Shown here one piece after another: positions 667 to 46,293 of a stretch of 46,293 bases of DNA (the first letter of the stretch is position 1; the number at the start of each line of letters is the position of its first letter). Source of the stretch: an uncultured Gemmatimonadaceae bacterium (GTDB taxonomy: Bacteria > Latescibacterota > UBA2968 > UBA8231). The notes under the pieces were generated by a model. The model ran no database searches. It was given only the letters and a program-made list of their open reading frames with translations, and had not been told where the DNA came from. Both the position numbers and the translations under genes were made by a program. The DNA is taken from positions 1 through 46,293 of the forward strand of contig CALFPI010000701.1 of NCBI GenBank assembly GCA_937919035.1. The letters run 5' to 3'.

Positions 667-13115
<12,449 letters not shown>

Positions 13116-32100: not shown

Positions 32101-35100
32101 GGCCATGCGCACATGGACTCGTCATCCAGTAGCACGATGTGCGGGATTTTTTCTTCGCGCATCGCCAGTTCGTGCTCCTGGAGGAGCCCCGAGGTCGTGA
32201 TCAAGTGGGCTACCTGGCTGTCCTGAAGCATGTAACGGATCCGGTCCGCCGGATACTGCGCGTCGATCGGCAGGAAGGCCCCACCCGCTTTGAGAACGCC
32301 GAGCATGGATGCGAGAAAGTCGATGTTCCGGGGTTCGAGGATCGCGACGAATTGATTCGGTTGCAGATTGCTGGCGCGCAATGACCAGGCGATCCGATTT
32401 GCCCTGACATTCAAGTCGGCGTAGCGGAGGCTGTTGCCGCCGTGGACGGCCGCCGTACGATCCGGATGATCCCGGGCGATCTGCTCGAACAAGGCGTGGA
32501 GTGGGCGCTCCACCGGGTACGACCGGCGGGGTCCGGAAAACTCCACCAGCAATCGGCGCTCTGCGCTGGCGTCGAGCAGTGGGAAATCGGCAAGCCGTTG
32601 TGAGTCGTCCTCGGCAACTCCCCGCAGGAGCGTCGTAAGATGCTCTGCCATGCATTTTATGGTGGATTCGTCAAACAGATCGGTGCTGAACTCGAACACC
32701 CCGAGCAGCCCCCCCTCAGTCTCCCACATATCCAGCACAATATCAAATTGTGCTGTCGTGCGTTGAAGATCCAGTACCGAAAAGGAGAGATCTGGAATCT
32801 CAAGTCTGTCTTCGGGCGCGTTCTGCAGAGCGAACATGACCTGAAAGAGGGGGTTACGACTCAGGTCACGTTCCGGCTGCAGATCGTCAACGATCTTTTC
32901 AAAGGGGTAGTCCTGGTTGGCGAAGGCATCGAGGCAGGCCTTCCGGACGCGTCCAACGAGCTCGCCGAAGGACGGATTCCCCGAGAGATCGGTCCGCAGG
33001 GCCAGCGTATTGACGAAGAATCCGATGAGTGGTTCCAGTTCGTCGCGATTGCGATTGGCCACGGGGGAACCGACGATGATGTCCTCCTGCGCCGTGTAGC
33101 GATAGAGCAGGAGGTTGAAGGCTGCTTGCAGCACCATGAACATCGTCGCGTCCAGGCGCCGGCAAAGCTGGGTGAGGCGCTGTGTCGTGTTCGCGTCCAC
33201 CTCGAAACGGAAGGAGCTTCCGCGGAAGGACTGGGATGGGGGCCGGGATCGATCGGTGGGAAGTTTCAACTCCGTCGGGAAGCCACTCAGTTGCCGTCGC
33301 CAGTAGGACAGTTGGTTGCCCGCCGGGTCGCCTTCGAACCACTTCTTCTGCCATCTCGAGAAGTCGGCATATTGAATCGGCAGCTGGGCCAGCAGCGCCG
33401 GTTCGCCCGTCGTGAAGTGCCTGTAGTGGGCGACCAGTTCGCGCACGAGCACACCCAGCGACCAGCCGTCCGAAACGATGTGGTGCATCGTGACGAGAAG
33501 GACGTACTCCTCGGTGCCGGTGACAAGCAATCGGGCCCGCAGCAGGGGGGCCTTGGTGAGATCGAAGACGATACGCGCCTCCGCGTGGGCCCTGCGGATG
33601 AGTTCCCCTTCCAGGTCATCGACGTGACGCAGGTCGGCGACGGGAATCTGGATCTCGATCCCGTCGTCAAGATGTGCCAGAGCCCGTCCATCCACCTCTT
33701 CGAAGGAGACTCGCAGGGCCTCGTGCCTGGCCACCACAGCGGTCAAACTCCGCTCCAGGGCGGCTACATCCAGGGGTCCGGTGATGCGGTGGGCGAAGGC
33801 GATATTGTAGTACGGATTGTCGGGCTCGAGGCGATCGAGGAACCAGAGCCGCTCCTGGGCGAAGGAGAGTTCGTCCGCCTGTCCTGGCTGCCGCTGAATG
33901 GCGGCGATCTCACCTTGTGAGGTCTCCCTCTTCTGACCATGGAGTTGATCGATGCGCGCACTCAGATCCCGGATCGTCGAGTAGCGGAACAGATCGTGGA
34001 TCGGCAGGTCGAGTCCGTACTGCCGCCGGATCCGAGAGATGACCTGCGTCGCCAGCAGCGAATTTCCACCGATGTCGAAAAAGCTGTCGGCCGTGCTGCC
34101 CGCATCGCGGCCGAGCACCTCCCGCCACAACTCCCACAGCTTCTGTTCCGTGTCGCTTGCCGGTGCCGCCGGCGGCGTCTGTAGGGCCGACGTTGAGGGC
34201 ACGGGAAGTCTGGCGCGGTCCACCTTGCCGTTTGCACTCAGAGGCAGCGCGTCGAGGATGGTCAGGGAGGCGGGTGTCAGGTGCGCCGGAAGTTTCTGGT
34301 CGATGTATATCCGCAGTGCTTCGACCAACTCGGCGTCCGTCGGCCGTGGACGGTCGGTGTCCTGTCCTCTGACGACGTAGGCGGCCAGCTCCTTCTGGCC
34401 GAAATCCTGACGAGCGACAACGACGCACGCACGCAGGCCCGGATGCTGCACCAGCACCGCTTCGACCTCTCCGGGCTCGATGCGGAAGCCCCGGATCTTC
34501 ACCTGGTCATCCAATCTTCCGATGAATTCGATGCTGCCATCTTCCAGATGACGGACCAGGTCGCCCGTCCGGTACAGAGGATCGTCGGCTCGGCTCGAAA
34601 AGGGGTTGCGAATCAGTTTCTGCCGATTCAGCTCCGGTTGATTTTTGTACCCGAGAAACAGTCCGTCGCCGCCGACCAGGAGTTCACCGGTAACGCCTGG
34701 GGGAACCAACCGCAGATTCCGGTCGACGATGAAGACGCGGGTGTTGGCGATCGGACGCCCGATGGGAATCGAGCGATCTGTCCAGTCTTCCCGAGGGATG
34801 GTAAAACAGCAGGTGAAGGTCGTGTTTTCCGTGGGGCCGTAGCCGTTGATCAGGCGGGTCTCGGGCAAGGCCTCCAGCGCCTTCTGCACGTGCGGCACCG
34901 AGAGCACGTCGCCGCCCGCCAGCAACTGGCGGAGTCCCCGCAAGTCGTCGATGCGCTCGTCCACCATCAGGTTGAACAGACCGGACGTGAGCCAGAGGGT
35001 TGTGACCCCGTGGCTCCTGATCTGTTCTCCCAGCTGGTCCAGGGACAAGGCTTGTGGTGGCGGCATGACGAGCGTGCCGCCGTTGAGCAGAGGTCCCCAG

Positions 35101-37277
35101 ATCTCCAGTGTCGACGCATCGAAGGTCACGGGAGCAAACTGAAGAAAGACCTCCGTTTCGGAGAACGCCATGAAGTCGGTCTCTCGTACCAGGCGAACGA
35201 CTGCACGGTGCGGAATCTGGGCGCCCTTGGGCGATCCTGTCGAGCCCGAGGTATACATGATGTAGGCGACCTGATCGGCCGGCGTATGAAGTTCGGGATG
35301 GGCAGCGCCATCGACGCATGCGTCCAAGCTGTCGCACAAGATCTCAACCTGCCCATCGGAGGCGGCCTCTGCGACCCGCGGACGCGTCTCGGAATCCGTC
35401 ACCACGAGGCCAATCTCCGCGTCGTCCAACATGAATTGGAGGCGCTCACGGGGATACTCCGGGTCGAGTGGCACATAGGCGCCGCCCGATTTGAGAATCG
35501 CGAGAATTGCTGCGATCAGGTCGAAGCAGCGTCGAAGGCAGATCCCGACGGGCATGCCCGGGGTCACACCACGGGCACGCAGGATGTGGGCGATCCGATT
35601 GGCCCGATCGTTCAACTGGCGGTAGGTCAAAGATTGCGCATCGGAGACCAACGCGAGCGCATCAGGATGCTGCGCCGCTTGCTCCTCAAAGAGGCTGTGG
35701 ATGGAGCGCTCCCTTGGATAGGGAATCGATCTCCCGCTCCACCGAGAGATCGCGCTTTCATCCTCTTTCGCCAGCAGCCGGAGCTCGTCCAGCCGGGCAT
35801 CGGGAGACTCGGCGATGGCATGAAGCATCTGCTGGAAGCAGTCGCAGTAGCGGCGGGCGGTTGCGGGCCGGAACAGGTCGCTGCTGTATTCGAGAAGTCC
35901 GCTCAGCGTATCGTTTCTGTTCTCGATCAGCAGTGTCAGATCATGTTTCGAAGTGACGCCGTCCATCTCGAGAGGGGTGACGTGGAGACCCGGGAGATCG
36001 ATCGCTGCGGGCGGATCCTCCTGGTAGCCGAAGACGACCTGGAAGATCGGCGTGTGGCTCGGATTCCGGTCCGGATTCAGTTTCTCGACCAGCTTCTCAA
36101 AGGGCAGGTGTTGGTGCGCATAGGCATCGGCCAGGGTGCGCTTCACGCGAGCCAGGAACTCCCGAAACGTAGGATTCCCGGAGAGCTGGCAGCGTAACGG
36201 CAGGGTGTTGACGAAGAACCCGACCAACGGTTCGAGCTCTCGCCGCGTGCGGCCCGCAACCGGTGAGCCGATGACGATATCGTCCTGCCCGCTGATCCGG
36301 TACAGAAAGGCGGAAAAGGCTGCCAGCAGGACCATGAAACGAGTCGACTCGGCCCTTCGAGCCAGGTCGCGCAGTTGGGCCGAAAGAGCTGGGCTGATTT
36401 CGAAGGGCACCGTAGCGCCACGCGAAGATCGGACGGGCGGCCGGTGATGATCGGCGGGCAGGTCGAGGACCGCCGGTGCGTGTTCCAGTTGCCTGACCCA
36501 GTAGGAGAGCTCGGGCTCGAGGCCGCCCTCCTCTGCGGTCTGCCGCTGCCACCAGGCGTAATCCGCATACTGGAGCGAACGTTCCCGCAGCGGCAGCGGG
36601 GCTGCCGAGGTCAGCGTTCTATACAGCTCTTCCAGTTCTCTGACGATGATCGCCATCGACCAGCCGTCGGCGACGATATGATGAATTGTCAGGAGCAGAA
36701 CATGGCGATCCGGATCGAGCCGGAGCACCCGACCGCGGATGACGGGACCGGTTCGCAGGTCGAAGGGCTCGTCGAATTCTCTGGCAGCTCTGCGGCGGGC
36801 CTCGTCCAACTTGGGTTCCGGCAGATGACTAAGGTCCTCGAGCGGCAGATCCAAAGCCCGCTCGGTCCCGATCTGCTGCACCGGAACCCCCTCAGAGACG
36901 TCGAACGTTGTGCGCAGCGTTTCATGACGCCCGACGATTTCGTCGAGGGCCTGCTTCAACGCCTCGAGCCGAAGATTGCCGGTGAGGATGAGTGCCGCGG
37001 GGATATTGTAGGCCGCGTCACTTCGATCCATTTCGTGGAGCACCCACAGCCTCTCCTGTGCGAAGGAAAGGGGTAGATCGCGGTCGCGAGCGACGGGAAC
37101 CAGGCCGTCCTCGGCACGCGCCCGGGAGCCCTGGCCGCGCCCCGATCTCGCCAGCAACCTGCTGATTGCCAGCTGCCTCTTTTCAGGCGAAAGTCGCTCG
37201 AGTCGGGCGTGGAGCTCGGGGGTCAGGTCCGGGGCCCCGAGGGCGCCGTCGAAATCCGGTTCTGTAGAACTCGACAT
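26151..37277 (-). CDS. Nonribosomal peptide synthetase, three modules: C-A-T, C-A(MT)-T, C-A-T
   Basis: 3708-aa ORF with ATG start at 37277-37275, 8 nt after the upstream TAA. Three HHxxxD motifs, three A3 motifs, three carrier motifs, and one embedded MT. Confidence 0.95.
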   Translation of the reverse strand: MSSSTEPDFDGALGAPDLTPELHARLERLSPEKRQLAISRLLARSGRGQGSRARAEDGLVPVARDRDLPLSFAQERLWVLHEMDRSDAAYNIPAALILTGNLRLEALKQALDEIVGRHETLRTTFDVSEGVPVQQIGTERALDLPLEDLSHLPEPKLDEARRRAAREFDEPFDLRTGPVIRGRVLRLDPDRHVLLLTIHHIVADGWSMAIIVRELEELYRTLTSAAPLPLRERSLQYADYAWWQRQTAEEGGLEPELSYWVRQLEHAPAVLDLPADHHRPPVRSSRGATVPFEISPALSAQLRDLARRAESTRFMVLLAAFSAFLYRISGQDDIVIGSPVAGRTRRELEPLVGFFVNTLPLRCQLSGNPTFREFLARVKRTLADAYAHQHLPFEKLVEKLNPDRNPSHTPIFQVVFGYQEDPPAAIDLPGLHVTPLEMDGVTSKHDLTLLIENRNDTLSGLLEYSSDLFRPATARRYCDCFQQMLHAIAESPDARLDELRLLAKEDESAISRWSGRSIPYPRERSIHSLFEEQAAQHPDALALVSDAQSLTYRQLNDRANRIAHILRARGVTPGMPVGICLRRCFDLIAAILAILKSGGAYVPLDPEYPRERLQFMLDDAEIGLVVTDSETRPRVAEAASDGQVEILCDSLDACVDGAAHPELHTPADQVAYIMYTSGSTGSPKGAQIPHRAVVRLVRETDFMAFSETEVFLQFAPVTFDASTLEIWGPLLNGGTLVMPPPQALSLDQLGEQIRSHGVTTLWLTSGLFNLMVDERIDDLRGLRQLLAGGDVLSVPHVQKALEALPETRLINGYGPTENTTFTCCFTIPREDWTDRSIPIGRPIANTRVFIVDRNLRLVPPGVTGELLVGGDGLFLGYKNQPELNRQKLIRNPFSSRADDPLYRTGDLVRHLEDGSIEFIGRLDDQVKIRGFRIEPGEVEAVLVQHPGLRACVVVARQDFGQKELAAYVVRGQDTDRPRPTDAELVEALRIYIDQKLPAHLTPASLTILDALPLSANGKVDRARLPVPSTSALQTPPAAPASDTEQKLWELWREVLGRDAGSTADSFFDIGGNSLLATQVISRIRRQYGLDLPIHDLFRYSTIRDLSARIDQLHGQKRETSQGEIAAIQRQPGQADELSFAQERLWFLDRLEPDNPYYNIAFAHRITGPLDVAALERSLTAVVARHEALRVSFEEVDGRALAHLDDGIEIQIPVADLRHVDDLEGELIRRAHAEARIVFDLTKAPLLRARLLVTGTEEYVLLVTMHHIVSDGWSLGVLVRELVAHYRHFTTGEPALLAQLPIQYADFSRWQKKWFEGDPAGNQLSYWRRQLSGFPTELKLPTDRSRPPSQSFRGSSFRFEVDANTTQRLTQLCRRLDATMFMVLQAAFNLLLYRYTAQEDIIVGSPVANRNRDELEPLIGFFVNTLALRTDLSGNPSFGELVGRVRKACLDAFANQDYPFEKIVDDLQPERDLSRNPLFQVMFALQNAPEDRLEIPDLSFSVLDLQRTTAQFDIVLDMWETEGGLLGVFEFSTDLFDESTIKCMAEHLTTLLRGVAEDDSQRLADFPLLDASAERRLLVEFSGPRRSYPVERPLHALFEQIARDHPDRTAAVHGGNSLRYADLNVRANRIAWSLRASNLQPNQFVAILEPRNIDFLASMLGVLKAGGAFLPIDAQYPADRIRYMLQDSQVAHLITTSGLLQEHELAMREEKIPHIVLLDDESMCAWPSQNPDQVNTSGDLAYMIYTSGSTGKPKGAMVRHDGAVNHIFGEFELLGFEPDTAFLQSAPASSDISIWQFLGPVLKGARTVVADFETVCDPARLFDLIKREGITLIELVPVLLQGLLEHARGMRADERSLPHLQCAMVTGEAVTVSLVNLWLDTYPGIRLVNAYGPTEASDDTCQFVVVDKLPADGRSVPIGKPIPNMNHYVVDSHLNLVPIGVPGEICVSGIGVGEGYWNDEERTRECFVPNPHVPAGADAATHKVLYRTGDRGFWRADGNLEYVERLDTQVKVRGFRIELGEIESLLADHPAVRETAVCVHEDEDGDRRLAAYFVPNLSSTQTREALAALRNEQVQLWQELHENSYQNTVTDGDPTFNTIGWDSNYTGAPLPVQDMREYVDYTVERVRSLRPGRVLEVGCGTGLVMFPLLPHCRSYTGMDLSRVAIDQLIGLRARSDLQEAVPGLAEAELQQRPAHDLSGFAPAAFDTVILPSVVQYFPGIQYFTQVLGALLPVLHQGGAIFVGDVRSACLLEVFHASVQLYKAGNDQATADLLRRTQQRVEAEQEMSIDPGFFLSLKDRFARISHVEILPKRGKSLNEMTRFRYDVLIHLDGSPAQVPKTLWQDWEQHPYSAEGIAAVLRAERPPLLAVRNICNARVASDVRALALMRSHLVYPDKAALIDAAGDSAVAGLDPEDLWSISRDLPYQVQLSMAGADEDGRLDALFVRTETGVATPVYSMPGPAEIRPDSHWANNPLQQRLAQRIIPQLRELLRTKVPAYMVPSDFVLLSRMPLTPAGKIDRTALPEPAGAQQAKADGHRAPRTATERRLAEIWTLVLDIETPDIGANFFDLGGHSLKATQVASRIHREFGVEIPLRDLFSLPTIEQLATHVEGLDATTYKPIASAAPADHYPLSHAQRRLWILAQLEATSSAYNMPVSLLLEGSLDRVALGQALQELAQRHESLRTRFVIVDDDPRQTIDEHLHLGPEFVDLTSVEDPDAQARELAHLHAREPFDLARGPLVRMSILKLAEGRHVLLFNMHHIIADDWSMGVLVREVGVLYDAFRRGLRPALRDLRVQYKDYAVWQNQRLATGQDEPARTFWLSQFSVPAAVLNLPTDEPRPPVKTYRGRSVTHMLDAETADGLRAFNREHGASLFMTLITCVNVLLYRYTGEQDITIGLPTAGRAHVDLEELIGFFINTLPFRMHVEPESTLLELVSRASEQVTACLEQQMYPADRLIDELNLRRDMSRSPLYDVTVTLQNVESYELSLPEIVLSPFVDDYDMSKFDLSFNFQEVGSGLRLDITYNSDLFLQERVDRITRHFAQVVKGLLQNSTQRIAEIDILPPAERAQVLGWRNAAVDMSGAPESLTAWFERQASQTPDHTALVEAVESAQQPPLTYRELNEQSNQLARCLIGQGIQSGDLVGLYLERSMEVVVSILAILKAGAAYVPLDPMYPDERVAFMIRDAQIGHIVTGAGRAERLGLGASVQVVDLDLDAASIRECASGNLGCGSGAHDPAYVIYTSGSTGQPKGVIVTHANVTRLFRSTENWFAFDETDTWTLFHSYSFDFSVWEIWGALLYGGRLVVLPQQLSRSPVDLLELLERNKVTVLNQTPSAFQQLIAADVDAESRHTLALRYVIFGGEALDYERLRPWFEHRGDTSPTLVNMYGITETTVHVTYRPIRLRDLDRSGSLIGAPLPDLRLYIVDPFGNPSPLGVPGEIWVAGKGVAQGYLRREELTQEKFAVDPFFAAGQQRLYRSGDLARFLPDGDIEYLGRIDSQVQIRGFRVELGEIETRLAAHSSVRAAVVVADERGTDSRLLAYCLAVTQQPAVAGDLRRFLAASLPEYMIPSHFVFLDAFPLTINGKLDRRSLPAPEDLDDPADNYVAAANSTEMIIAAAFARVLGVDQVSRDANFFDLGAHSMSIVSVHRHLQQEHGMDLSILSFYEFPTVVSLAAHIAGGPSGEVADIGREATGRAELRRRSRQRRRG
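26244..26450 (-). other. Thiolation domain T3 (hands over to the downstream KS)
   Basis: FFDLGAHSMSIVSV, followed by a tail ending ELRRRSRQRRRG. Confidence 0.8.
26502..28022 (-). other. Adenylation domain A3, Thr code
   Basis: A3 PAYVIYTSGSTGQPKG, FDFSVWEIW, LNQTPS, IFGGEA, NMYGITETTVHV, A10 NGKLDR. Code DFWNIGMVHK matches the Thr signature exactly. Confidence 0.85.
28098..29399 (-). other. Condensation domain C3 (LCL-like)
   Basis: LSHAQRRLWILAQ, QRHESLRTRF, active-site variant HHIIADDWS. Confidence 0.85.
29454..29657 (-). other. Thiolation domain T2
   Basis: FFDLGGHSLKATQV. Confidence 0.85.
29703..32501 (-). other. Adenylation domain A2 interrupted by a methyltransferase, substrate unassigned
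   Basis: A3 LAYMIYTSGSTGKPKG, SDISIWQF, MVTGEA, NAYGPTEASDD, A8 ERLDTQVKVRGFRIELGEIE, about 470 aa, then A9 VPAYMVP and A10 AGKIDR. Code DIWEMTADDK. Confidence 0.85.
29823..31100 (-). other. Methyltransferase domain embedded between A8 and A9 (N-MT-like)
   Basis: NTIGWDSNYTGAPLPVQDMREYVDYTVERV, then motif I VLEVGCGTGL (checked at 30852-30881). Confidence 0.85.
32583..33878 (-). other. Condensation domain C2 (LCL-like)
   Basis: LSFAQERLWFLDR, ARHEALRVSF, HHIVSDGWS. Confidence 0.85.
33954..34154 (-). other. Thiolation domain T1
   Basis: FFDIGGNSLLATQV. Confidence 0.85.
34203..35705 (-). other. Adenylation domain A1, Val-like code
   Basis: A3 VAYIMYTSGSTGSPKG, FDASTLEIW, NGYGPTENTTFT, A10 NGKVDR. 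Code DALWLGGTFK has two mismatches to the Val signature DAFWIGGTFK. Confidence 0.75.
35778..37082 (-). other. Condensation domain C1 (LCL-like)
   Basis: LSFAQERLWVLHE, GRHETLRTTF, HHIVADGWS. Confidence 0.85.
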
Positions 37278-37285
37278 GTCTCGAT

Positions 37286-40200
37286 TTACCGACGCAGGTC
37301 CCGGAGTTGTCGACGATGGAGCTGGTCTCTGGCTTCTTCTTCCGTCATGGTCTCGACTTCGGACAGAATGTCCTCCAGATCGTCATCCTCCTCGTTGACT
37401 CCGAGTCCAGCCTGGCGCTCGACGGCCAACGCCAACTCCTCGACCGTGGCCTTGTCAAACAGAATGCCTACGGGCAGTTCCACATGCAGATCCTCGGCGA
37501 TACGGCCAATTGCCTGGGCAGCCAGCAGGGAATGGCCCCCCAGTCGAAAGAAGTTGTCGTGGATTCCGATACGATCCAGACCCAGCAGCTGAGACCAGAT
37601 CGACACCAGCCGCTGCTCGACCGTTGTTCGGGGAGCCACGTATTCCAGGTCGACGCTCTCCCGCGCCAGCCGCAGTGCGGCGAGAGCGCTGCGGTCGACT
37701 TTGCCGTTTCGGGTGAGGGGGAGTTCGTCGATCGGCACGTAAAAGGTCGGGACCATGGCCTCGGAGAGGCGCGCCGCAAGGTGCGCTCGCAGGTCCTCGC
37801 TCTCCACCGCTGTGTCCGCTACGTAGTAGGCAGCCAGGACGGGTTCGGATCGCTTCTGATCCTTGCCATTTTCGTCGTAACCGATTTCGGCCAGCATGCG
37901 CCGGACTTCGTCGACATCGATCCTGTCATCGAGTTCCTCGAGGGCGGCGTCGCGTTTTTTGTGTCCCATGCGGACGTCCCAGGCATAGGGCATGGCATAG
38001 TTATGGTAACGGCGTTCCTTCTGGTGGATGTAGATCCCGACATCGTTGATCCTGCAGTTGGTAGAGCGTCCGGTGTCGGATGGTCTCACCCACGGAAGCT
38101 TGCTGTCCAGATAGGCGTAGACTTCATCCAGGTCGACATCACAGTAGCGATAGAAGTCGAGGATCCGGACCGTCTCGAAGGTCTGGTCGTCCTTGAAGGC
38201 CGTCACGTCGAGCCGTCGTGACACCTCGTCGTCGAGCCGGTGATAGACCTTGCGGGCTTCCTTGATGAACCGGTCGACCGTCTCGGCACGAAAATCGTCG
38301 GACCGGTAGAAGTTTGACAGTCTCGTCTCGAACTGCTGTCCGCGACTCAGGCCGGTAACGATGCACGGAATGCCCTCACTGCGAGCGAGGTTCATGCTGA
38401 GGGTGTAAAGAGTCTTGAAACAGCCATTGCACACATTGCTGTGTCTTGTCAGGCTGTCGGCAAAGATCGCATTCATGTGAGGCGTTGTGCCGAAGACGTG
38501 GTCGACACCGAGAGCCTCGACGACGCGGCTGATGTTGTCCTTCGCCTGCTCGGATATGTATCCGTTGTCCAGAGTGTAGGCGAGAATCCTCAGGTCCATG
38601 TCGACGAGTCTGGCCAAGGCATAGGTGCTGTCCTTGCCGCCGCTGAACAACACGATGCAGTCGTATTTTCCCGTCGAACTCTCGCGGGCGCCGCGGAGGA
38701 TCGACTCGAGTTCGCCCATGGCCGTGAAGTAAGGAGCCACCTTGTGCCGGTACTGCTCGTAGGCTCGGCACTGGTTGCAGTGCCCGCGCTCGTCGAAGGT
38801 CGTTCCGGGATAGTTGGAAGCGAGTCCACACTGCACGCAGTGGTCGAGGTCACGTGAATCGTCATGGGTGGTGCTCATCTGGACGACATCCACGACGCAT
38901 TCGCGCACGCTGTCGTGGGCGCTGAGCTGGGCTTCGATCTCCCCCAGTTCGACTCGAACACCGCGGATCTTCACCTGCCGATCGACACGGCCACAGTACT
39001 CCATGACGCCTTCGTTGCGCCATCGTGCCAGATCTCCGGTGCGGTACATGCGGGCTCCGGGCACAAAGGGGTCCGGCGAGAAACGCTCCTGAGTCAGGTC
39101 CTGCCGGTGGAGGTAGCCCCTGGCGACGCCGTCACCGGAGATATACATCTCGCCAACGGCCCCCGGCGGAACCGGAATGTGGTTGTCGTCCAACAGGTAG
39201 ATCCGCGCATTGTCCGCAGGCACGCCGATCGGCACGGAGGCGGCCGTATCCATTGCCGGGTCGTAGCGGTGAATCATGCAGCCTACCGTCGCCTCCGTCG
39301 GGCCGTACTCATTGTAGATCTCGATGTTGCCGCCGAAGGCCTCGTGGATCCTGCGAGCGAGATCGGTCTTCAGATCCTCGCCTCCCACGATCAGTTTTCT
39401 CACCCTCGAGTCCTTCAAATCGAGGTCCTTGATGAGTGCCAGGTGGGCTGGTGTGAGCTTCACGATGTCCGCAGTCTTGTCCTGAAAGACCTGCAGGATC
39501 GTCGGCACCCGGTTCTCGTCCTGCTCGCCGTAGACGATGATCCGGCCACCCGAGATCAGCGGCGTGAACAGGGAGGTAACGGTCAGATCGAAGGAGACCG
39601 AGGTGTAGAGCGGGAAATCCATCCTCTTCCCGGCGACGTATTTCTTCGCCCACCAGACATAATTGGTCAGCCCACCGTGTTCCACGATGACGCCCTTCGG
39701 CTCGCCCGTGGAGCCGGATGTATAGATCACATAGGCCGGGTCTGAAGTCTCGATGGCACAATCCAGGTTATCCGTCGCGCCAGCCAGGGCGGCGCCGTCG
39801 GAGACGTCCAGCATGCGCCCCTGGTATGCGGCCAGACCGGGGCGGCGGCCGAGTGCATCGGCACGGGTCAGCAGCAGATCCAGGCGGCTGCCTGCCAGGA
39901 TTTGACCGATGCGACCGTCCGGATAGGAGGCGTCGATGGGGAGATAGGCGGCGCCGGCCTTCATGATGCCCAGCAGACCGACGAGCAGGTCGATGGAGCG
40001 CTCGAGCATGACCCCTACGATGGCTCCTCGGCCGACGCCGTGGGACTGCAGCAGCCGCCCCATGCGGTTGGCGCGGCCGTTGAGCTCGCGGTACGTCGCC
40101 GTACTGCCTTCATAGACGATCGCGACGTCATCCGGGGTCTGCTCAACCTGGCGTTCAAAGAGACGCGTCACGGTGACCGATCTCGGGTAATCGACACGCG

Positions 40201-41794
40201 TGTCATTGCGCGCGATGAGGAGGCAATCCCGCGTGGACGGCTCGAGGATCTCCAGGTCCAGAACCGGCCTGCTCGGATCCCGGACAGCCGCCGCAAGGAA
40301 AGTCGTGTACATGGCGACGATCCGTTCGATCGTCTCGGGGTCGTAGAGGGTCCGATTGTACTCCAGATCGCCTCGCAGGCCGCCTTCCTTCGTCTCCTCC
40401 ATGACGAGGGTCAAATCAAAAGTCGCCCCGGGAGTGAACTGCCGGTCATCACGCGGGAGTATCTCCATCCCGGGAAAATCCGGCGGCGCAATCGGTACGT
40501 TCTGGAAGAGGAACGCGACCTGGAAGAGCGGGTTGTGAGCGAGGCTGCGCTCGGGCTGCAGCTCGTCCACAAGCTTTTCGAAGGGCAGGTCCTGGTGCTC
40601 ATAAGCCTCAGCGGAACTGGCGCGGACCTGAGCCACGAGTCGGCGAAACGTCGGATTCTCCGACAGGTCGCTGCGAAGTACCAAGGTGTTGACGAAACAC
40701 CCGACGACGGACTCGATCTCTTGCCGTCTTCGTCCCGCGATCGGATAGCCAACCACGATATCCTTGAGACCGTTGATCCTTGAAAGCAGAGCGGCATACG
40801 CAGCCAACAGCGTCATGAACAGGGTCGCATTCTCCCCCTCGCCGAGTGCCCTCAGCTGCGCAGTCAGTTGCCGTCCGACGGCAAGCGGGACCTTGGCTCC
40901 CTCGTAACGGTAGAATGCAGGCCTGGGTCTGTCCGCCGGCAGTGTGAACAGATCCGGTGCCCCTTGCAGGACGCTCCGCCAGTAGGCGAGATCGCGCTCC
41001 AGCTTCTCTCCGGCGATCGTTTTGTGTTGCCAGCGGGAAAAGTCCGCATACTGGATTTCGGGCTCAGGCAACAGTTGGGGCGTTCCCTGGTCAAGGGCCC
41101 TGTAGAGATCGGACATTTCGTGGAGCAGAATGCCGATGGACCAGCCGTCGGACACGATGTGGTGAGTGGTCAGCAGTAGAACGTGGTCCGCCCGATCGAG
41201 GCGCAGGAGCACGACGCGCACCAGAGCATCGGCGGCCAGGTCAAAGGGCGCCGTCGCCTCCGCCTGTATCCGGTCGTGGAGGAAGCGCTCCTTTTCGGCC
41301 TTGTCCCAAGAGGAGCAGTCGATCAATTCGAGGCCGGAGGGACCGCCTGGGCGCACGATCGCTACGGGCTTGCCCGCACGAATGGGAAAGTTCGTACGCA
41401 GCACCTGGTGACGCCGCAGGATCTCGGCGATGCTCTTATCCAGGGCTTCGACGTTCAGCGGCCCACGGAAACGGATCTGTACAGGAGAATTAAATACGGC
41501 AGACCGACTCTCCAACTGATCGAGGAACCACATCCGCTGCTGAGCGAAGGACAGGGGGGGTGGTCCGTCATCAGACGTCGCCGTGATGCTCTCAGAGGCC
41601 GTGGCGCCAGCCTGGCGGAGAAACTCAAGGATCTCACCTTTGCGCGCCGCAATCTGTTCGCGTACGGCCGCCGTCACGGTGCCCTCGGGCGCGTCGACGA
41701 CGAGTCGGTCGCCACGGACCTCGATGGCCACGTCGAGCCGGCGGAGGCTGGAGAGAAACTCGTCGATGGGCCTGCTCTTCGTGTCGTTCGTCAA
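37286..41794 (-). CDS. Nonribosomal peptide synthetase, docking-C-A(Asn, interrupted by a zinc-ribbon/PP-loop domain)-T
   Basis: 1502-aa ORF. The TTG start at 41794-41792 overlaps the upstream TGA (TTGA), with GAGAGAAG 8-9 nt upstream. No ATG or GTG is available before the docking-domain residues. Confidence 0.93.
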   Translation of the reverse strand: MTNDTKSRPIDEFLSSLRRLDVAIEVRGDRLVVDAPEGTVTAAVREQIAARKGEILEFLRQAGATASESITATSDDGPPPLSFAQQRMWFLDQLESRSAVFNSPVQIRFRGPLNVEALDKSIAEILRRHQVLRTNFPIRAGKPVAIVRPGGPSGLELIDCSSWDKAEKERFLHDRIQAEATAPFDLAADALVRVVLLRLDRADHVLLLTTHHIVSDGWSIGILLHEMSDLYRALDQGTPQLLPEPEIQYADFSRWQHKTIAGEKLERDLAYWRSVLQGAPDLFTLPADRPRPAFYRYEGAKVPLAVGRQLTAQLRALGEGENATLFMTLLAAYAALLSRINGLKDIVVGYPIAGRRRQEIESVVGCFVNTLVLRSDLSENPTFRRLVAQVRASSAEAYEHQDLPFEKLVDELQPERSLAHNPLFQVAFLFQNVPIAPPDFPGMEILPRDDRQFTPGATFDLTLVMEETKEGGLRGDLEYNRTLYDPETIERIVAMYTTFLAAAVRDPSRPVLDLEILEPSTRDCLLIARNDTRVDYPRSVTVTRLFERQVEQTPDDVAIVYEGSTATYRELNGRANRMGRLLQSHGVGRGAIVGVMLERSIDLLVGLLGIMKAGAAYLPIDASYPDGRIGQILAGSRLDLLLTRADALGRRPGLAAYQGRMLDVSDGAALAGATDNLDCAIETSDPAYVIYTSGSTGEPKGVIVEHGGLTNYVWWAKKYVAGKRMDFPLYTSVSFDLTVTSLFTPLISGGRIIVYGEQDENRVPTILQVFQDKTADIVKLTPAHLALIKDLDLKDSRVRKLIVGGEDLKTDLARRIHEAFGGNIEIYNEYGPTEATVGCMIHRYDPAMDTAASVPIGVPADNARIYLLDDNHIPVPPGAVGEMYISGDGVARGYLHRQDLTQERFSPDPFVPGARMYRTGDLARWRNEGVMEYCGRVDRQVKIRGVRVELGEIEAQLSAHDSVRECVVDVVQMSTTHDDSRDLDHCVQCGLASNYPGTTFDERGHCNQCRAYEQYRHKVAPYFTAMGELESILRGARESSTGKYDCIVLFSGGKDSTYALARLVDMDLRILAYTLDNGYISEQAKDNISRVVEALGVDHVFGTTPHMNAIFADSLTRHSNVCNGCFKTLYTLSMNLARSEGIPCIVTGLSRGQQFETRLSNFYRSDDFRAETVDRFIKEARKVYHRLDDEVSRRLDVTAFKDDQTFETVRILDFYRYCDVDLDEVYAYLDSKLPWVRPSDTGRSTNCRINDVGIYIHQKERRYHNYAMPYAWDVRMGHKKRDAALEELDDRIDVDEVRRMLAEIGYDENGKDQKRSEPVLAAYYVADTAVESEDLRAHLAARLSEAMVPTFYVPIDELPLTRNGKVDRSALAALRLARESVDLEYVAPRTTVEQRLVSIWSQLLGLDRIGIHDNFFRLGGHSLLAAQAIGRIAEDLHVELPVGILFDKATVEELALAVERQAGLGVNEEDDDLEDILSEVETMTEEEARDQLHRRQLRDLRR
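37421..37633 (-). other. Thiolation domain
   Basis: FFRLGGHSLLAAQA, followed by the acidic/helical tail EEDDDLEDILSEVETMTEEEARDQLHRRQLRDLRR. Confidence 0.85.
37685..37843 (-). other. Adenylation domain, C-terminal part (A9-A10)
   Basis: PVLAAYYVAD ... LSEAMVPTFYVPIDELPLTRNGKVDR. Confidence 0.85.
37844..38878 (-). other. Inserted zinc-ribbon + PP-loop ATP-pyrophosphatase-like domain (aa ~973-1317)
   Basis: CVQC-x16-CNQC (first Cys codon checked at 38837-38839), YDCIVLFSGGKDSTYAL (SGGKDS checked at 38627-38644), CNGC at aa 1122-1125, and single Cys residues at aa 1144, 1218 and 1247. Confidence 0.85.
38879..40174 (-). other. Adenylation domain, N-terminal part through motif A8, Asn code
   Basis: A3 PAYVIYTSGSTGEPKG, FDLTVTSLF, VKLTPAH, LIVGGED, NEYGPTEATVGC, A8 GRVDRQVKIRGVRVELGEIE. 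Code DLTKIGEVGK (the K comes from NGKVDR in the C-terminal part). Confidence 0.85.
40250..41563 (-). other. Condensation domain (LCL-like, acyl/ketide donor)
   Basis: LSFAQQRMWFLDQ, RRHQVLRTNF, HHIVSDGWS. Confidence 0.85.
41615..41773 (-). other. TubC-like N-terminal beta-hairpin docking domain
   Basis: IDEFLSSLRRLDVAIEVRGDRLVVDAPEGTVTAAVREQIAARKGEILEFL. Confidence 0.7.
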
Positions 41795-44700
41795 ATTTCA
41801 AACTTCTCTCGTTGTTCACCTGCGTTGGGGGGCGTGGCTTCCTGCCGAGACGCCCAGCGGATCGTGTCGATGTTGTCCGCCATCTCGCGGAGGGTTGGGT
41901 GATTGAAGAAACTCGGCATCGGCAGGTCGACACCCAATTGCTCGCGGACCCGCGAGATGACCTGCGTCGCCAGCAGCGAGTGCCCACCCAGCTGAAAGAA
42001 GTCGTCGTCGGAACCGATGCGGCGGATGCCGAGAGAGTTCTCCCATATTCCGGCAACGGCCCTTTCCGTCGCCGTCTCGGGGTCTTTGAATTCGGTGGCC
42101 AGGACGGGGCGTTCATGCAGGGAACCGACCCGGCCCGTGATGGCGACGACATCGGGTGAGAATTCCCGTTCCCATTCCAGGCGCGAGTGGAAATCTCGGG
42201 TCGATACGACGACCTGAGGAAGATTCAAAGCCAGGATCTGTTCGAAAACCTCGATGCCCTCTGCGCTGGTGATACCGGTGTCGAGGATCTGGTTTCTCAT
42301 CCCCGCCAGCGTTGCGGGCACTTCGGTTTCAGCGGCCATGCCGATTTCTTTCCAGGTATCCCAGTTGACGGAGCGGATCCACGGTTCGGCCGTTGCGTTG
42401 CGGCGGGCGAAGGAGTCCAGGAATATATTCGCTGCCGCGTAGTCTGCCTGGCCGAATTCCCCCAGCACGGCGCTGGTAGAGGAGCAGAGAAGCAGAAAAT
42501 CGATCGCCCGCGCCCGGAAGATCTCCTCGAGGACGAGCGTGCCTTTCACCTTGGGTTCCAGGACGCCGTCGCATTGCTGGCGGTCTCTGTTCTGGATGAC
42601 GCCACCCCCCGCCACTCCTGCGGCGTGAACCACGCCCCGGATCTTGCCGTGGGCCTCTTCCGCCTTGCGGATCACAGTCTCCATCTGCTCCAGATCGGCG
42701 ACATCCGCGGCGTAGTAGTCGACGCGTGTTCCACAAGAGCGCAGTTGCTGGAGTCGTGCAAGTTTCCGCCGGTGTGAGTCCGTTGCCGGGTCGGCATCTT
42801 CGCTGGTGGACAGGTCGGTTCTGCCCACAAGGACCAGATTCGCCCGGGCCGTCTGGGCCAGATAGCGGGACAGGACAAAGCCGATGCCCCCCAGGCCACC
42901 AGTCACCAGATAGGTTGCGCCCTGCCGGATGCGTCCGGGTGTCTGGGGGGTCGTGGGAAGGTCGACCCGATCGAAGACGCGGGCCCACCGATACCCGTGG
43001 CGGAGCGCGACCGACGTGTCGGCATCGCAGCTGCACTCCTGCCACAGTGCTTCGATCAATGCCTCGTCCGTGAGTGCCTCCGCTCGTGGTACGTCCAGGT
43101 CAATATTCCTGCACTTGAATCCGGCATATTCCTTGGGAATGACTGCCACGGGGCCCAGAACCGTCGCCCACATGGCCGCGGCGGGCGTCTCACCGAGAAC
43201 GCTGAAGATGTTTGACGTCGTATTGTGGATCCGCGGCGTCGCCCTCGGCGTTTCAGCGCCCAGTGCCTGTGCCAGGGAAAGCAGGCTGTAGAACCCCCGG
43301 TTCAGGACCGCTCCCATATCCGGGGGCAGGGAGTGAGGATCTCGGGTTTCGAGAGACCACAGGTGCAGGATATCGGAGGGCGAAAAGCCTTGCTCCCGAA
43401 GCGCCACAAGCAGATCCACATAACCGGCGGGTGCCCCCGGCTGCATGGCAAAGTGGGTCGTGTCGAGTTGCTGAAAGTGGTCGCTGATGGCGACCGTAAC
43501 GACACGGGCTCCGGTCGACCGGAGTCTCTTGGCGATCTGTTCACCCAGTCCCATCTCGTCCAGCAACAGCAGCCAGCAAGTTTGCGCCAGGTCGCCAGAT
43601 GCGCTGTGTCGCAGCTGCTTCCAGGTAGGACACCAAAACCACTGGTTCAGAGGATCGCGCCCGAGACCGAGTCGGCTGCCTGCCGACGAGGAGGGCGGGT
43701 CGATCCAGTAGCGGTTTCTCTGGAAGGGATAGGTGGGCAGGGGGATCCGACGTCGGCGTTCACGCGCAAAAAATCCGTCCCAATCGACGGCAACACCCGC
43801 AAGCCACAGGCGCCCGAGCGTGTCCAGCAGGAACTGCTGGTCTGTCTCATTGCCCTCGCCGGGAACCAGCGACGGCAGGATCGGCTGCTCCGCTTCGCGC
43901 GCCGGGTTGGCCCGGGCGAAGGCATTGAGCGTCTTGCCCGGCCCAACCTCAAGCAGGGCGTATTCAGCCCCTTTCAGCAGGACCGAAAGTCCGTCGCCGA
44001 AGCGGACGGGCTCGCGCAGGTGTCTGGCCCAGTACGAGGGATCGGCCGCCTGCGCCGCGGTGATCCAGTCTCCGGTGACGTTCGACACGAAGGGGATGCT
44101 GGCCGCATGCAGGTCCATCCTGGAAAGAGTTTGCAGGAACGGTTCCAGGATTGGCGCCATCATTCGGGAATGGAATGCGTGCGACGTACGAAGCGGTCGG
44201 CTCGGGATCTGCTCCGCCGCCAGCCTGCCTGCAAGCGCCTGGATGGCACGATCGCTGCCCGAAACGGTCAGTGCCCTGGGGCCATTCTGCAGCGCAAGAT
44301 CCAGATCACTGCCAAGGTATGGGGCCAATTCCTCTTCCGTCATGGCCACGGCGAGCATGGAGCCGCCGGGGAGTTGCTGCATCAGGCGTGCCCGCGCACT
44401 GACGATCTGCAGTGCCTGTTCCAATGAGAAGACGCCGGCCAGGCAAGCGGCGACGTATTCACCGATGCTGTGCCCAATCATCGCGGCAGGTCGAACGCCC
44501 CAGCTCATCCACAATTGTGCCAGGCTGTACTCCACCGCGAAGAGCGCCGGTTGTGTCAGGCGAGTCTGGCGCAGGGCCGCTTCGGCCTGCTCGTGGTCGG
44601 CGCCATCGGGGAAGAGAGCCCTGCGAAGATCCTGGTCGATGAGAGGCGCGAGAATGTCTGCACACCGATCGAGGTGTGCACGGAATACCGGCTCGGATTC

Positions 44701-46293
44701 GTACAAGCCGCGCCCCATGTCCACGTATTGCGAGCCCTGTCCGGGAAACATGAAAATGACGGGTCGCTCGGAGGATGGACAACTGCCAGACTGTCCCGTG
44801 TCCGTGGCTGGATCCTTGAGGACCGCCAACAACTCGCCCGTCGTGCGGGCGGTGGTGAAAAAACGCTCGGCGAAAGCGCGTCTGCCCAGAGCCAGAGTTG
44901 CGGCAAGATCGCCGGGATGCACGGCCGGGGTCTCCACGAGGTGGTGCGACAGCCGCGCTTTGACCTCTCGCAGAGCCCCGGCAGAGCGGGCGGACAGGAC
45001 ATAGGGAAGGCATGGACGGGTATCTGACGTGGTCTCCAGCGCCGGCGCTTCCTCCAGGATCACATGGGCGTTGGTACCGCCAATCCCGAAGGCGCTGACA
45101 CCGGCTCGCCGCGGAAATCCGTCGGGGCGCCGCCAGGCTGTCAGTTCGGTGGTGACGTAAAAGGGGCTTTTGTCAAAGTCGATCCGCGGGTTGGGGCGGC
45201 CGAAGTGGAGGCTGGGAGGGATCTTTCCGTGACGCAGGCAGAGGACCGCCTTCAGAAATCCCGCAATTCCCGCTGCTGCGTCCAGGTGTCCCATGTTGGT
45301 CTTCACCGATCCGATGGCGCACGATCTGGCGGGACGTCCGGCATGAACTCGGGCGAGCGCGGCGATTTCGATCGGATCCCCCAACGACGTCCCGGTCCCG
45401 TGCGTCTCGATGTAACCGATGCTTTCCGGCGCCACGGCGGCCGCCGTCAGGGCCGCCTGGATAACGTCCGCTTGACCGTTCTCGCTTGGCGCAGTGTAGC
45501 CGATCTTCTCGGCGCCATCGTTGTTGATCGCACTGCCCTTCACCACCGCGAGAATCGTGTCGCCATCGGCCATGGCGTCGTCGAGCGACTTCAGCAAGAC
45601 GGCGCCGGCACCACTGCCGCCCACCATCCCGTCTGCGTCGGCATCGAAGGCGCGGCAGTGCCCGTCGGAGGAGAAGACCATGCCCTCCCTATGGAGATAC
45701 CCCCTGACTTGCGGGAAGCTGAGCGTTACGCCGCCAGCGAGAGCCACGTCGCAACGGCCTTCTGCGATCGACTGGCAGGCGATGGCGATGGCAACCAGTG
45801 ATGTGGAACAGGCGGTCTGCACATTGAGACTGGGTCCGCTGAGATTCAGCTTGTAGGAAACTCGCGTGGCGAGGTAGTCCTTGTCGCTGGCGAGAAGGAG
45901 CTGGAACCGGTCGACCGATTCAACCAGATCCTGATTGGGGTAAATGTTATTGAGGATGTAGCTGTTGGCCCCACAGCCGGCGAAAACGCCGATGCGACCG
46001 GAGTACCTCCACGGATCGCAGCCGGCACGCTCAAAGGCCTCCCATGAACATTCGAGGAAGATGCGGTGCTGCGGGTCGAGCAGTTCCGCCTCGCGCGGCG
46101 TGAAGTTGAAGAAGTCGGCATCAAACTGGTCAGCCTCCGCAATGATCGCGTTGGCCTTCACGTATCGCGGGTCCGCAAGCAACGCGGCATCGACGCCGGC
46201 GTCGATGAGTTCCTCGTCGGAGAAGAATGTGACCGACTCCACGCCATCGCAAAGATTCCGCCAGAAGGCATCAGGGCTCGGCGCACCTGGAAA
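41791..46293 (-). CDS. Type I polyketide synthase, KS-AT-KR-carrier; the 5' end lies beyond the window
   Basis: The ORF track starts at M 46242, but the frame stays open to 46293. The reverse complement of 46243-46293 reads FPGAPSPDAFWRNLCDGV, which is the normal KS N-terminus, so the gene is 5'-truncated by the window edge. Confidence 0.93.
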   Translation of the reverse strand, partial: FPGAPSPDAFWRNLCDGVESVTFFSDEELIDAGVDAALLADPRYVKANAIIAEADQFDADFFNFTPREAELLDPQHRIFLECSWEAFERAGCDPWRYSGRIGVFAGCGANSYILNNIYPNQDLVESVDRFQLLLASDKDYLATRVSYKLNLSGPSLNVQTACSTSLVAIAIACQSIAEGRCDVALAGGVTLSFPQVRGYLHREGMVFSSDGHCRAFDADADGMVGGSGAGAVLLKSLDDAMADGDTILAVVKGSAINNDGAEKIGYTAPSENGQADVIQAALTAAAVAPESIGYIETHGTGTSLGDPIEIAALARVHAGRPARSCAIGSVKTNMGHLDAAAGIAGFLKAVLCLRHGKIPPSLHFGRPNPRIDFDKSPFYVTTELTAWRRPDGFPRRAGVSAFGIGGTNAHVILEEAPALETTSDTRPCLPYVLSARSAGALREVKARLSHHLVETPAVHPGDLAATLALGRRAFAERFFTTARTTGELLAVLKDPATDTGQSGSCPSSERPVIFMFPGQGSQYVDMGRGLYESEPVFRAHLDRCADILAPLIDQDLRRALFPDGADHEQAEAALRQTRLTQPALFAVEYSLAQLWMSWGVRPAAMIGHSIGEYVAACLAGVFSLEQALQIVSARARLMQQLPGGSMLAVAMTEEELAPYLGSDLDLALQNGPRALTVSGSDRAIQALAGRLAAEQIPSRPLRTSHAFHSRMMAPILEPFLQTLSRMDLHAASIPFVSNVTGDWITAAQAADPSYWARHLREPVRFGDGLSVLLKGAEYALLEVGPGKTLNAFARANPAREAEQPILPSLVPGEGNETDQQFLLDTLGRLWLAGVAVDWDGFFARERRRRIPLPTYPFQRNRYWIDPPSSSAGSRLGLGRDPLNQWFWCPTWKQLRHSASGDLAQTCWLLLLDEMGLGEQIAKRLRSTGARVVTVAISDHFQQLDTTHFAMQPGAPAGYVDLLVALREQGFSPSDILHLWSLETRDPHSLPPDMGAVLNRGFYSLLSLAQALGAETPRATPRIHNTTSNIFSVLGETPAAAMWATVLGPVAVIPKEYAGFKCRNIDLDVPRAEALTDEALIEALWQECSCDADTSVALRHGYRWARVFDRVDLPTTPQTPGRIRQGATYLVTGGLGGIGFVLSRYLAQTARANLVLVGRTDLSTSEDADPATDSHRRKLARLQQLRSCGTRVDYYAADVADLEQMETVIRKAEEAHGKIRGVVHAAGVAGGGVIQNRDRQQCDGVLEPKVKGTLVLEEIFRARAIDFLLLCSSTSAVLGEFGQADYAAANIFLDSFARRNATAEPWIRSVNWDTWKEIGMAAETEVPATLAGMRNQILDTGITSAEGIEVFEQILALNLPQVVVSTRDFHSRLEWEREFSPDVVAITGRVGSLHERPVLATEFKDPETATERAVAGIWENSLGIRRIGSDDDFFQLGGHSLLATQVISRVREQLGVDLPMPSFFNHPTLREMADNIDTIRWASRQEATPPNAGEQREKFEI
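41869..42075 (-). other. Carrier protein domain
   Basis: FFQLGGHSLLATQV (a PCP-like GGHSL motif). The tail ends NAGEQREKFEI. Confidence 0.85.
42208..43647 (-). other. Ketoreductase (structural + catalytic subdomains, uninterrupted)
   Basis: WFWCPTWKQ...LHLWSL...NIDLD, GATYLVTGGLGGIGFVLS, VVHAAGVAGGG, LLLCSSTSA, QADYAAANIFLD. Confidence 0.85.
43873..44763 (-). other. Acyltransferase domain, malonyl-type
   Basis: FMFPGQGSQ, GHSIGE, SHAFHS. Confidence 0.88.
45043..46293 (-). other. Ketosynthase domain (partial at the window edge; Cys-His-His intact)
   Basis: QTACSTS (Cys codon checked at 45808-45810), ETHGTGT, KTNMGHLDAAAG. Confidence 0.92.

Follow-up and report, generated by a model that had tools for sequence, protein, structure and literature searches.

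The 1502-aa nonribosomal peptide synthetase (NRPS) encoded on contig CALFPI010000701.1 of an uncultured Gemmatimonadaceae bacterium (assembly GCA_937919035.1; the 46,293-nt stretch analyzed here is referred to as the window) contains an adenylation (A) domain with an asparagine code that is interrupted by a 345-aa PP-loop domain. Judged by homology, this insert is very probably a domain of the AMDH type (asparagine 'aminomutase/dehydratase'), the device that Gross et al. (2021; PMC7966384) named in CysH, a cystobactamid synthetase of Cystobacter velatus Cbv34, and it would be expected to turn carrier-tethered Asn into β-cyanoalanine and/or isoasparagine (isoAsn). The chemistry of the insert is not of a new kind, the AMDH device being already known; what is new here is the in-line context in an orphan polyketide synthase (PKS)-NRPS line, the breadth of the family, and a set of structural leads on the mechanism.

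Kinship with the AMDH domain of CysH

The insert aligns with the CysH AMDH domain (sequence from the source data accompanying PMC7966384) over 329 aa at 55% identity and 72% positives (E 7e-144), with all motifs aligned, and the two host A domains share 50% identity and the same code, DLTKIGEVGK. The sequence features by which an AMDH domain is recognized are found in the 1502-aa protein, namely insertion between motifs A8 and A9, a host A domain that is predicted to be Asn-specific, and homology to the CysH domain over its full length, including SGGKD. SGGKD, designated 'core region 1', is conserved in AMDH and is also found in AlbIV, and the numerous AMDH homologs that have been reported all reside inside Asn-specific A domains (PMC7966384).

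The activity of the CysH domain has been established both in vitro and genetically. Upon incubation with Asn, CysH acquires +96 instead of +114 Da, indicative of β-cyano-Ala on its thiolation (T) domain (−18 Da); CysH without its AMDH domain loads Asn only, with no mass shift to +96, and deletion of the domain removes all isoAsn and cyano-Ala congeners (PMC7966384). The outcome depends on earlier β-hydroxylation by CysJ, without which the reaction shifts towards dehydration (PMC7966384). Albicidin contains β-cyanoalanine and the cystobactamids contain isoasparagine, AlbIV and CysH being the respective Asn modules. For AlbIV (NRPS-2*) from Xanthomonas albilineans, the insert was proposed to make β-cyano-L-alanine (Cociancich et al., 2015, as cited in PMC7966384 and PMC8949500), and a 2022 review describes the AlbIV/CysH insert as an alpha-ANH-like domain of the PP-loop superfamily (PMC8949500). 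The first-pass annotation of this DNA, prepared from the sequence alone, had stated that no PP-loop insert was described; this was wrong, given the CysH domain and its AlbIV homolog, and the exact architecture, whose prior characterization the annotation had named as grounds for giving up its proposal, is already characterized in CysH (PMC7966384).

Architecture and conserved residues of the insert

The 1502-aa NRPS comprises, by Pfam, TubC_N (aa 10-61), Condensation (80-524), AMP-binding (546-895), AMP-binding_C (1312-1365), and PP-binding (1394-1456, E 2.2e-14) domains (Table 1). The insert lies between A8 and A9 (LSEAMVP, aa 1343-1349), in the hairpin between the strands ...ECVVDVVQ and VLAAYYV, and stretches the A8-A9 spacing to 388 aa. 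An uninterrupted Asn-code paralog in the same window (the third A domain of a 4150-aa gene, at about nt 2304-3794) shares the code, and its spacing is 52 aa. The code of the interrupted domain, read from its motifs, is the Stachelhaus code DLTKIGEVGK (Asn). A second interrupted A domain occurs in the neighboring 3708-aa NRPS (its second A domain, aa ~1596-2610), where a methyltransferase (MT) insert (Methyltransf_11/12, aa 2133-2240) is placed after the equivalent RLAAYFV strand, so that its insertion point differs from that of the AMDH insert. On re-reading the sequence, the motif positions, coordinates, Asn code, A8-A9 spacings, and insertion point given by the first-pass annotation were all found to be correct. 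Long open reading frames (ORFs) at 37307-38221 (+), 38376-38831 (−), and 38864-39745 (+) run antisense to the insert or out of frame with it; such overlaps are typical of GC-rich coding DNA, and these ORFs are taken as non-genes.

Within the insert, CVQC at 986 and CNQC at 1006 delimit the zinc-ribbon tetracysteine, the PP-loop stretch YDCIVLFSGGKDSTYAL spans aa 1044-1060, and CNGC begins 71 aa past S1051 of the PP-loop; lone Cys residues are found at 1144, 1218, and 1247. The four zinc-ribbon residues C14, C17, C34, and C37 (insert numbering) are all invariant in alignment A1, while in alignment A2 (58 sequences) C17, C34, and C37 are invariant and C14 (C986) is retained in at least 90%. The PP-loop residues S79, G81, K82, D83, and S84 (insert numbering) are invariant in 58 sequences, and the CxGC pair (1122/1125) together with C1247 (C275 in insert numbering) is strictly invariant across 58 family members. 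The Cys residues at 1046, 1144, and 1218 are not conserved. The insert possesses all of the family-invariant residues (the full PP-loop, the zinc ribbon, and the Cys triad), and many residues besides the PP-loop and zinc ribbon are invariant, which argues for a domain that is under selection and intact here.

Table 1. Coordinates of the interrupted module, its motifs, and the adjoining megasynthase genes in the window.
Feature	Position (nt)	Strand	Evidence
AMDH-type insert, aa 973-1317 (345 aa); PP-loop domain with NASAT-like fold	37844..38878	−	CysH identity, TIGR03573, AF2, Foldseek
Zinc-ribbon tetracysteine CVQC-x16-(GH)CNQC, aa 986-1009	38768..38839	−	Motif search
PP-loop SGGKDS, ATP pyrophosphatase signature, aa 1051-1056	38627..38644	−	Motif search
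CNGC (invariant CxGC), aa 1122-1125; candidate metal/Fe-S ligands	38420..38431	−	Alignment of relatives
Cys1247 in GRSTNC motif; candidate third ligand of CXXC-C triad	38054..38056	−	Invariant in alignments
NRPS gene, 1502 aa; TubC_N dock-C-A(interrupted)-T	37286..41794	−	ORF list and translation, Pfam
A-domain core and first part of C-terminal subdomain, aa 546-972	38879..40159	−	Pfam, motifs, code
Motif A8 (GRVDRQVKIRGVRVELGEIE), aa 935-954	38933-38992	−	Motif reading
Rest of A C-terminal subdomain, aa 1318-1368: LAAYYV strand, A9 LSEAMVP, A10 NGKVDR	37691..37843	−	Pfam, motifs
Thiolation (carrier) domain, aa 1394-1456	37427..37615	−	Pfam PP-binding, E 2.2e-14
Upstream PKS module KS-AT-KR-ACP, C-terminal part of 4189-aa protein	41791..46242	−	Pfam; full length from the 116-kb contig ERZ1283785 k141_187280
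Downstream three-module NRPS, 3708 aa; codes Val, DIWEMTADD, Thr	26151..37277	−	Pfam, code reading

Fold, profile relations, and a candidate metal site

Profile searches place the insert nearest to the N-acetyl sugar amidotransferases (NASATs). TIGR03573 (WbuX) matches nearly throughout (E 3.1e-33, 115.6 bits, profile 3-321 of 344; NCBIfam), with a score under the curated cut-off of 203.2, so that the insert does not score as a member of the NASAT family. Profiles of LarE, QueC, and similar proteins reach the N-terminal Rossmann/PP-loop part only, at 17-27 bits (NCBIfam, Pfam); the QueC profile PF06508, for instance, is matched over aa 1046-1120 (27.1 bits, profile 2-76 of 210) and hence not over its full length. 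Membership of QueC (TIGR00364, 23.5 bits against a cut-off of 150.3) and of LarE/ThiI (TIGR00268, 26.5 bits against 150; PF02568, 16.5 against 20.5) was rejected, as was a methyltransferase, ketoreductase (KR), or oxidase insert, no such profile matching in Pfam or NCBIfam. The earlier statements that the insert is not a methyltransferase and that it belongs among PP-loop proteins are borne out by both databases.

The structural models agree. AlphaFold2 (AF2), supplied with an alignment of 58 sequences from which CysH was left out, models the insert at a pLDDT of 92.2 and a pTM of 0.91, in keeping with the proposed independent PP-loop fold carrying an N-terminal four-Cys zinc ribbon. The top Foldseek match of this model in the PDB is 8WEX, a Legionella NASAT (E 7e-11, TM 0.62, 360-371 aligned columns), and the next neighbors, YcfA, TtuA, NcsA, and LarE, are matched at TM ≤0.40; the kinship to WbpG/WbuX/PseA that had been suggested earlier is thereby upheld in both profile and fold. 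In a second model (aa 900-1502, pLDDT 86.3), the strands 963-971 and 1319-1326 flank the insert, which is consistent with an A subdomain closing around an independent fold beside the T domain, the arrangement that structure prediction had been suggested to look for.

The NASAT family is defined by SGGxDS and by the zinc-binding motif CxxCxn[GN]xCxxC, with zinc bound in 8WEX (PMC10607449), and both motifs are present in the insert (SGGKDS at 1051; CVQC-x16-CNQC at 986-1009). NASATs and AMDH presumably both activate an amide oxygen with ATP. At approximately the place where AMDH has CxGC past the PP-loop, two NASAT fragments show HPFQPF (counted by hand, unaligned); the matches listed for an 81-aa piece of 8WEX were fragments of up to 142 aa, of which these two reached the CxGC region. 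For the insert itself (345-aa query), the matches listed, of up to 603 aa, were NRPS fragments, and one of them, P0018, proved to be a piece of a frameshifted long-read NRPS.

The Cys triad points in a further direction. In the profile search, the CxGC of the insert aligns with the CxxC of the [4Fe-4S] LarE structures 8cnz and 8cp4; in LarE, a CXXC-C motif provides three ligands of the [4Fe-4S] cluster, and the cluster of TtuA is likewise held by three Cys residues (PMC9283937). Gross et al. stated the AMDH mechanism to be unknown, described purified CysH as dark brown, and sought as metal or cofactor motif only the radical-SAM CxxxCxxC (PMC7966384). Because of the LarE alignment, the invariant Cys triad, and the brown color of CysH taken together, an Fe-S or other metal site at CxGC and C1247 is plausible. 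A bolder proposal, which we regard as speculative and rather unlikely to hold as a whole, is that AMDH combines a NASAT fold with a LarE/TtuA-like metal site, that dehydration and the isoAsn swap are metal-assisted, and that the in-line module could then yield an unseen product, for instance a nitrile-bearing or β-linked residue in a polyketide-peptide or, less likely, a thioamide or amidine. The literature search returned no later paper that resolves the AMDH mechanism or links AMDH to NASAT or to CXXC-C, and nothing on interrupted adenylation with an amidotransferase or on an N-acetyl sugar amidotransferase in a nonribosomal context.

Proposed mechanism and product

Given its code, the host A domain would adenylate L-Asn and load it onto the adjacent T domain (aa 1394-1456), which is expected to hold the Asn that the insert modifies. 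The PP-loop insert, which the mobile A subdomain carries in its A8-A9 hairpin, would bind ATP at SGGKDS and, by analogy with NASATs and QueC, may convert the tethered Asn to an O-AMP imidate by activating its side-chain carboxamide oxygen; in the scheme of the albicidin authors, phosphorylation takes the place of adenylation. Loss of AMP would afford β-cyano-L-alanyl-S-T with a net change of −18 Da, the change shown for CysH. Alternatively, as CysH genetics indicate, the same domain could isomerize Asn to isoasparagine, the chain then going on via the former side-chain carbonyl. For this second route, a succinimide-type acyl swap seems to us likelier than a true 2,3-amine shift; by such a thioester/amide swap, β-hydroxy-Asn would become α-hydroxy-isoAsn with neither substituent moved. 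The chain from the upstream KS-AT-KR-ACP module would N-acylate the modified residue via the condensation (C) domain of the AMDH module, and the modified Asn would then be passed to the Val module of the downstream NRPS.

Because no CysJ- or CysQ-like enzyme is seen in the window and CysH dehydrates more without CysJ, β-cyanoalanine appears to be the likelier product here, with roughly an even chance, and isoasparagine or a mixture comes next. Among the products that had been suggested beforehand, the nitrile is that of the characterized homolog, while a thioamide or amidine finds no support in CysH, and isoasparagine had not been proposed.

Alternative explanations

The closest profile and the closest fold (TIGR03573 and 8WEX) both belong to the NASATs, whose tetracysteine and PP-loop recur in the insert, and an amidotransfer of the kind that WbpG, WbuX, and PseA perform on acetamido sugars must be considered, wherein an amide carbonyl (of the Asn side chain or of the new N-acyl amide) would be adenylated and ammonia would displace AMP to give an amidine. 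The 115.6 bits are nevertheless well under the cut-off of 203.2, the 55%-identical CysH domain gives −18 rather than −1 Da with no amidine congeners reported (PMC7966384), and the window has no ammonia-delivery gene (glutaminase or HisH/HisF-like); we deem this reading very unlikely. A further possibility is thioamidation as by TtuA, Ncs6, LarE, or CtaC, wherein a CXXC-C-bound [4Fe-4S] cluster would carry sulfide and an adenylated amide would become a thioamide. The invariance of CxGC and C1247, the alignment of CxGC with the CxxC of LarE 8cnz, the role of CXXC-C as cluster ligands in LarE (PMC9283937), the brown color of purified CysH (PMC7966384), and the rank of TtuA, NcsA, LarE, and YcfA directly behind NASAT among the structural neighbors would all suit such chemistry. 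Against it, TM values to the sulfur transferases remain at or below 0.40 and the LarE, ThiI, and QueC profiles score far under their cut-offs, over the N-terminal Rossmann part only; moreover, cystobactamid and albicidin linkers with sulfur are not known, CysH gives a nitrile in vitro, and no sulfur-carrier or desulfurase gene is seen in the window, so that thioamidation appears highly improbable.

Deletion of AMDH in the cystobactamid system also abolished O-methylation by CysQ, from which an AMDH-CysQ interaction and hence a scaffolding role have been suggested (PMC7966384), and the insert of the window could by the same token be a structural or docking element that recruits tailoring enzymes, or an inactive relic. 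The retention of every family-invariant residue in the PP-loop, zinc ribbon, and Cys triad, along with a highly confident AF2 model, makes an inert or purely structural insert a distant prospect. Least credible is an assembly chimera, wherein an NRPS gene and an unrelated PP-loop gene would have been joined at about 37844 and 38878. The overall GC content of the insert is slightly lower (0.579) than that of the other parts of the gene (0.617-0.636), which is the one feature in favor of a chimera; GC3, at 0.765, is within the range of the flanks (0.735-0.803). The identical 1502-aa protein occurs on five contigs; the three places shown belong to as many ENA assemblies, with which the window is collinear over both insert boundaries at 99.97-99.995% identity. 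The presence of one and the same protein in independent assemblies rules out a chimera and answers the earlier concern about breakpoints at the insert boundaries; together with the architecture shared by the relatives (see below), the independent contigs refute this explanation.

Several points weigh against the AMDH assignment or limit what can be drawn from it. The chemistry has been shown for CysH, with which the 1502-aa protein is grouped by homology, and the domain of the window may be nearer either to the 'dehydratase-only' or to the bifunctional type. Both CysH and AlbIV are stand-alone A-AMDH-T modules that deliver their product in trans, as opposed to the in-line C-A-T arrangement here, so that in the window the reaction could have another timing and act on another substrate (the free amine or N-acylated Asn). 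The cluster continues beyond both ends of the window, where a hydroxylase or O-methyltransferase could lie. For every AMDH domain the adenylation step is so far a postulate, and the brown color of CysH, along with the invariant CXXC-C triad, hints at a cofactor for which a simple adenylate-and-eliminate scheme does not account.

Distribution of relatives

When one genome per species was scanned, at least 591 species genomes were found to encode relatives, distributed over Acidobacteriota, Cyanobacteria, Planctomycetota, Verrucomicrobiota, Chloroflexota, Bacteroidota, Actinomycetota, Nitrospirota, and Proteobacteria. Architecture and code were counted in 81 loci fetched from among these genomes. 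An A core lies directly upstream of AMDH in all 81, the host A code is DLTK[IVL]GE[VI]G in all 81, and the A-subdomain remainder and T domain follow downstream in 78; in two of the other three, the contig ends within about 120 bases of the match. The count of NRPSs sharing the architecture, which had been proposed as a check, thus speaks for a widespread family embedded in Asn-code A domains. Identity is 65% or less in every locus, so the organism of the window is not among the species representatives, and Xanthomonas is not among the best 80 loci of the genome scan.

A collinear homolog of the window cluster was identified in the metagenome-assembled genome (MAG) of Acidobacteria sp. RBC033 (locus L031; contig MAG033_14, 276-20999), with identities of 49% for the PKS, 45% for the AMDH module, and 45% over 3300 aa for the following three-module NRPS, whose codes are those of the window (Val, Dab-like, Thr). 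This collinearity hints at a related, possibly acidobacterial, origin of the window. Most AMDH loci elsewhere represent one conserved cluster type that is unlike the window's (e.g., locus L010, 3020-20156). It contains a fatty-acyl-AMP-ligase-like gene and C-A(Asn,AMDH)-T, along with a HupE/UreJ-like membrane protein (38/81 loci) and an acyl-CoA dehydrogenase (46/81), and the module after AMDH bears the code DS[AV]xIAEVW in about 38 of 48 long loci. This type has the look of an orphan lipopeptide cluster with members in many phyla, and its HupE/UreJ neighbor hints at metal handling. In L010 (12841-20156), the second A domain (DSACIAEVW) is itself split, a C-A-core ORF being followed by a 462-aa glycosyltransferase (GT)-like ORF (EryCIII_C/UDPGT) and then by an ORF that begins with the A-subdomain remainder and continues with T and C. 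The same place is taken by GT-like homologs in L009, L010, L016, L017, L020, L022, L024, L034, and L047 (53-70% identical to the L010 ORF), and weaker homologs (25-39%) are found elsewhere in the locus in seven further cases; the GT at the A domain may represent a further way in which A domains are interrupted or split.

The cluster around the module

The AMDH module sits between a PKS module and a three-module NRPS (Table 1), the second code of which, DIWEMTADD, is one that we take to resemble a 2,4-diaminobutyrate (Dab) code. A single tailoring gene is seen in the window; it lies inside the assembly-line operon (13179-14909, −) and encodes a 576-aa B12-binding radical S-adenosylmethionine (SAM) enzyme, which at 706.5 bits exceeds the cut-off of 600 for TIGR04479 (PhpK-family radical SAM methyltransferase). 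A cobalamin radical SAM methyltransferase, CysS, is also part of the cystobactamid cluster. No CysJ-type β-hydroxylase or CysQ-type O-methyltransferase is present in the window, past both ends of which the cluster runs, and no glutaminase or HisH/HisF-like ammonia-delivery gene, sulfur-carrier or desulfurase gene, or thioesterase is seen in the window.

The 4150-aa NRPS (C-A-T-C-A-T-E-C-A-T-C) ends in a C domain, and its TGA stop codon (663-665) overlaps a TTG (664-666) in another frame, from which a C-A linker and an A-domain N-terminus run off the window end (1-666, −); the last module appears to be split C|A over two proteins without a docking domain. Counted from the first possible starts, successive megasynthase ORFs overlap by 53 nt (18528-18580) and by 4 nt (41791-41794; ATGA/TTGA-type). 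With all genes on the minus strand, these overlaps are consistent with one long translationally coupled operon.

Implications

For annotation purposes, inserts of this kind should be called AMDH domains, and the module should be predicted to incorporate β-cyanoalanine or isoasparagine instead of Asn, which alters structure predictions for the product of the orphan PKS-NRPS line. Nitriles are rare warheads in natural products. As of 2021, no AMDH homolog outside the albicidin and cystobactamid systems was linked to a known metabolite (PMC7966384), and the literature search returned no later report of a new AMDH-linked metabolite. The NASAT-like fold, the zinc ribbon, and the invariant CXXC-C triad provide testable handles on the catalytic mechanism of AMDH.

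Comparison with known systems

The NASATs (WbuX, WbpG, PseA; 8WEX) are the best full-length match to the insert in both profile and fold and have the PP-loop and zinc motif in common with it, although 8WEX and the AMDH insert are only 16-18% identical; they are free-standing enzymes that act on sugars and add ammonia to give an amidine, whereas the insert is embedded in an NRPS A domain of a PKS-NRPS cluster. TtuA, Ncs6/NcsA, and LarE (from T. maritima and M. maripaludis) share with the insert a PP-loop, a CxxC about 70 residues later, and a distal Cys, to which TtuA adds an N-terminal zinc finger; they are set apart by TM values of 0.40 or less and profile scores far under the cut-offs, and AMDH is without known sulfur chemistry. 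QueC (7-cyano-7-deazaguanine synthase) is a PP-loop enzyme that turns an amide into a nitrile with ATP. Its likeness to the insert is confined to a weak PF06508 match to the N-terminal 75 residues, and it differs in its metal site, in being free-standing, and in its nucleobase substrate.

AlbIV, to which the insert can be likened by published description, is an Asn-activating module with a homologous SGGKD ATP-binding insert; it is stand-alone, with a nitrile as its only known outcome, in contrast to the in-line module of the window. CysH is the closest counterpart, carrying at the same A8-A9 site the zinc ribbon, SGGKDS, CNGC, and GRSTNC, followed by the A-subdomain remainder and T domain. 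It functions with the β-hydroxylase CysJ and the O-methyltransferase CysQ, and no homolog of CysJ, CysQ, or CysB is seen in the window; furthermore, CysH is a stand-alone A-AMDH-T protein whose product is shuttled by CysB to the para-aminobenzoic acid (pABA) oligomer line, whereas here the AMDH-type domain is built into an in-line dock-C-A-T module of a PKS-NRPS assembly line.

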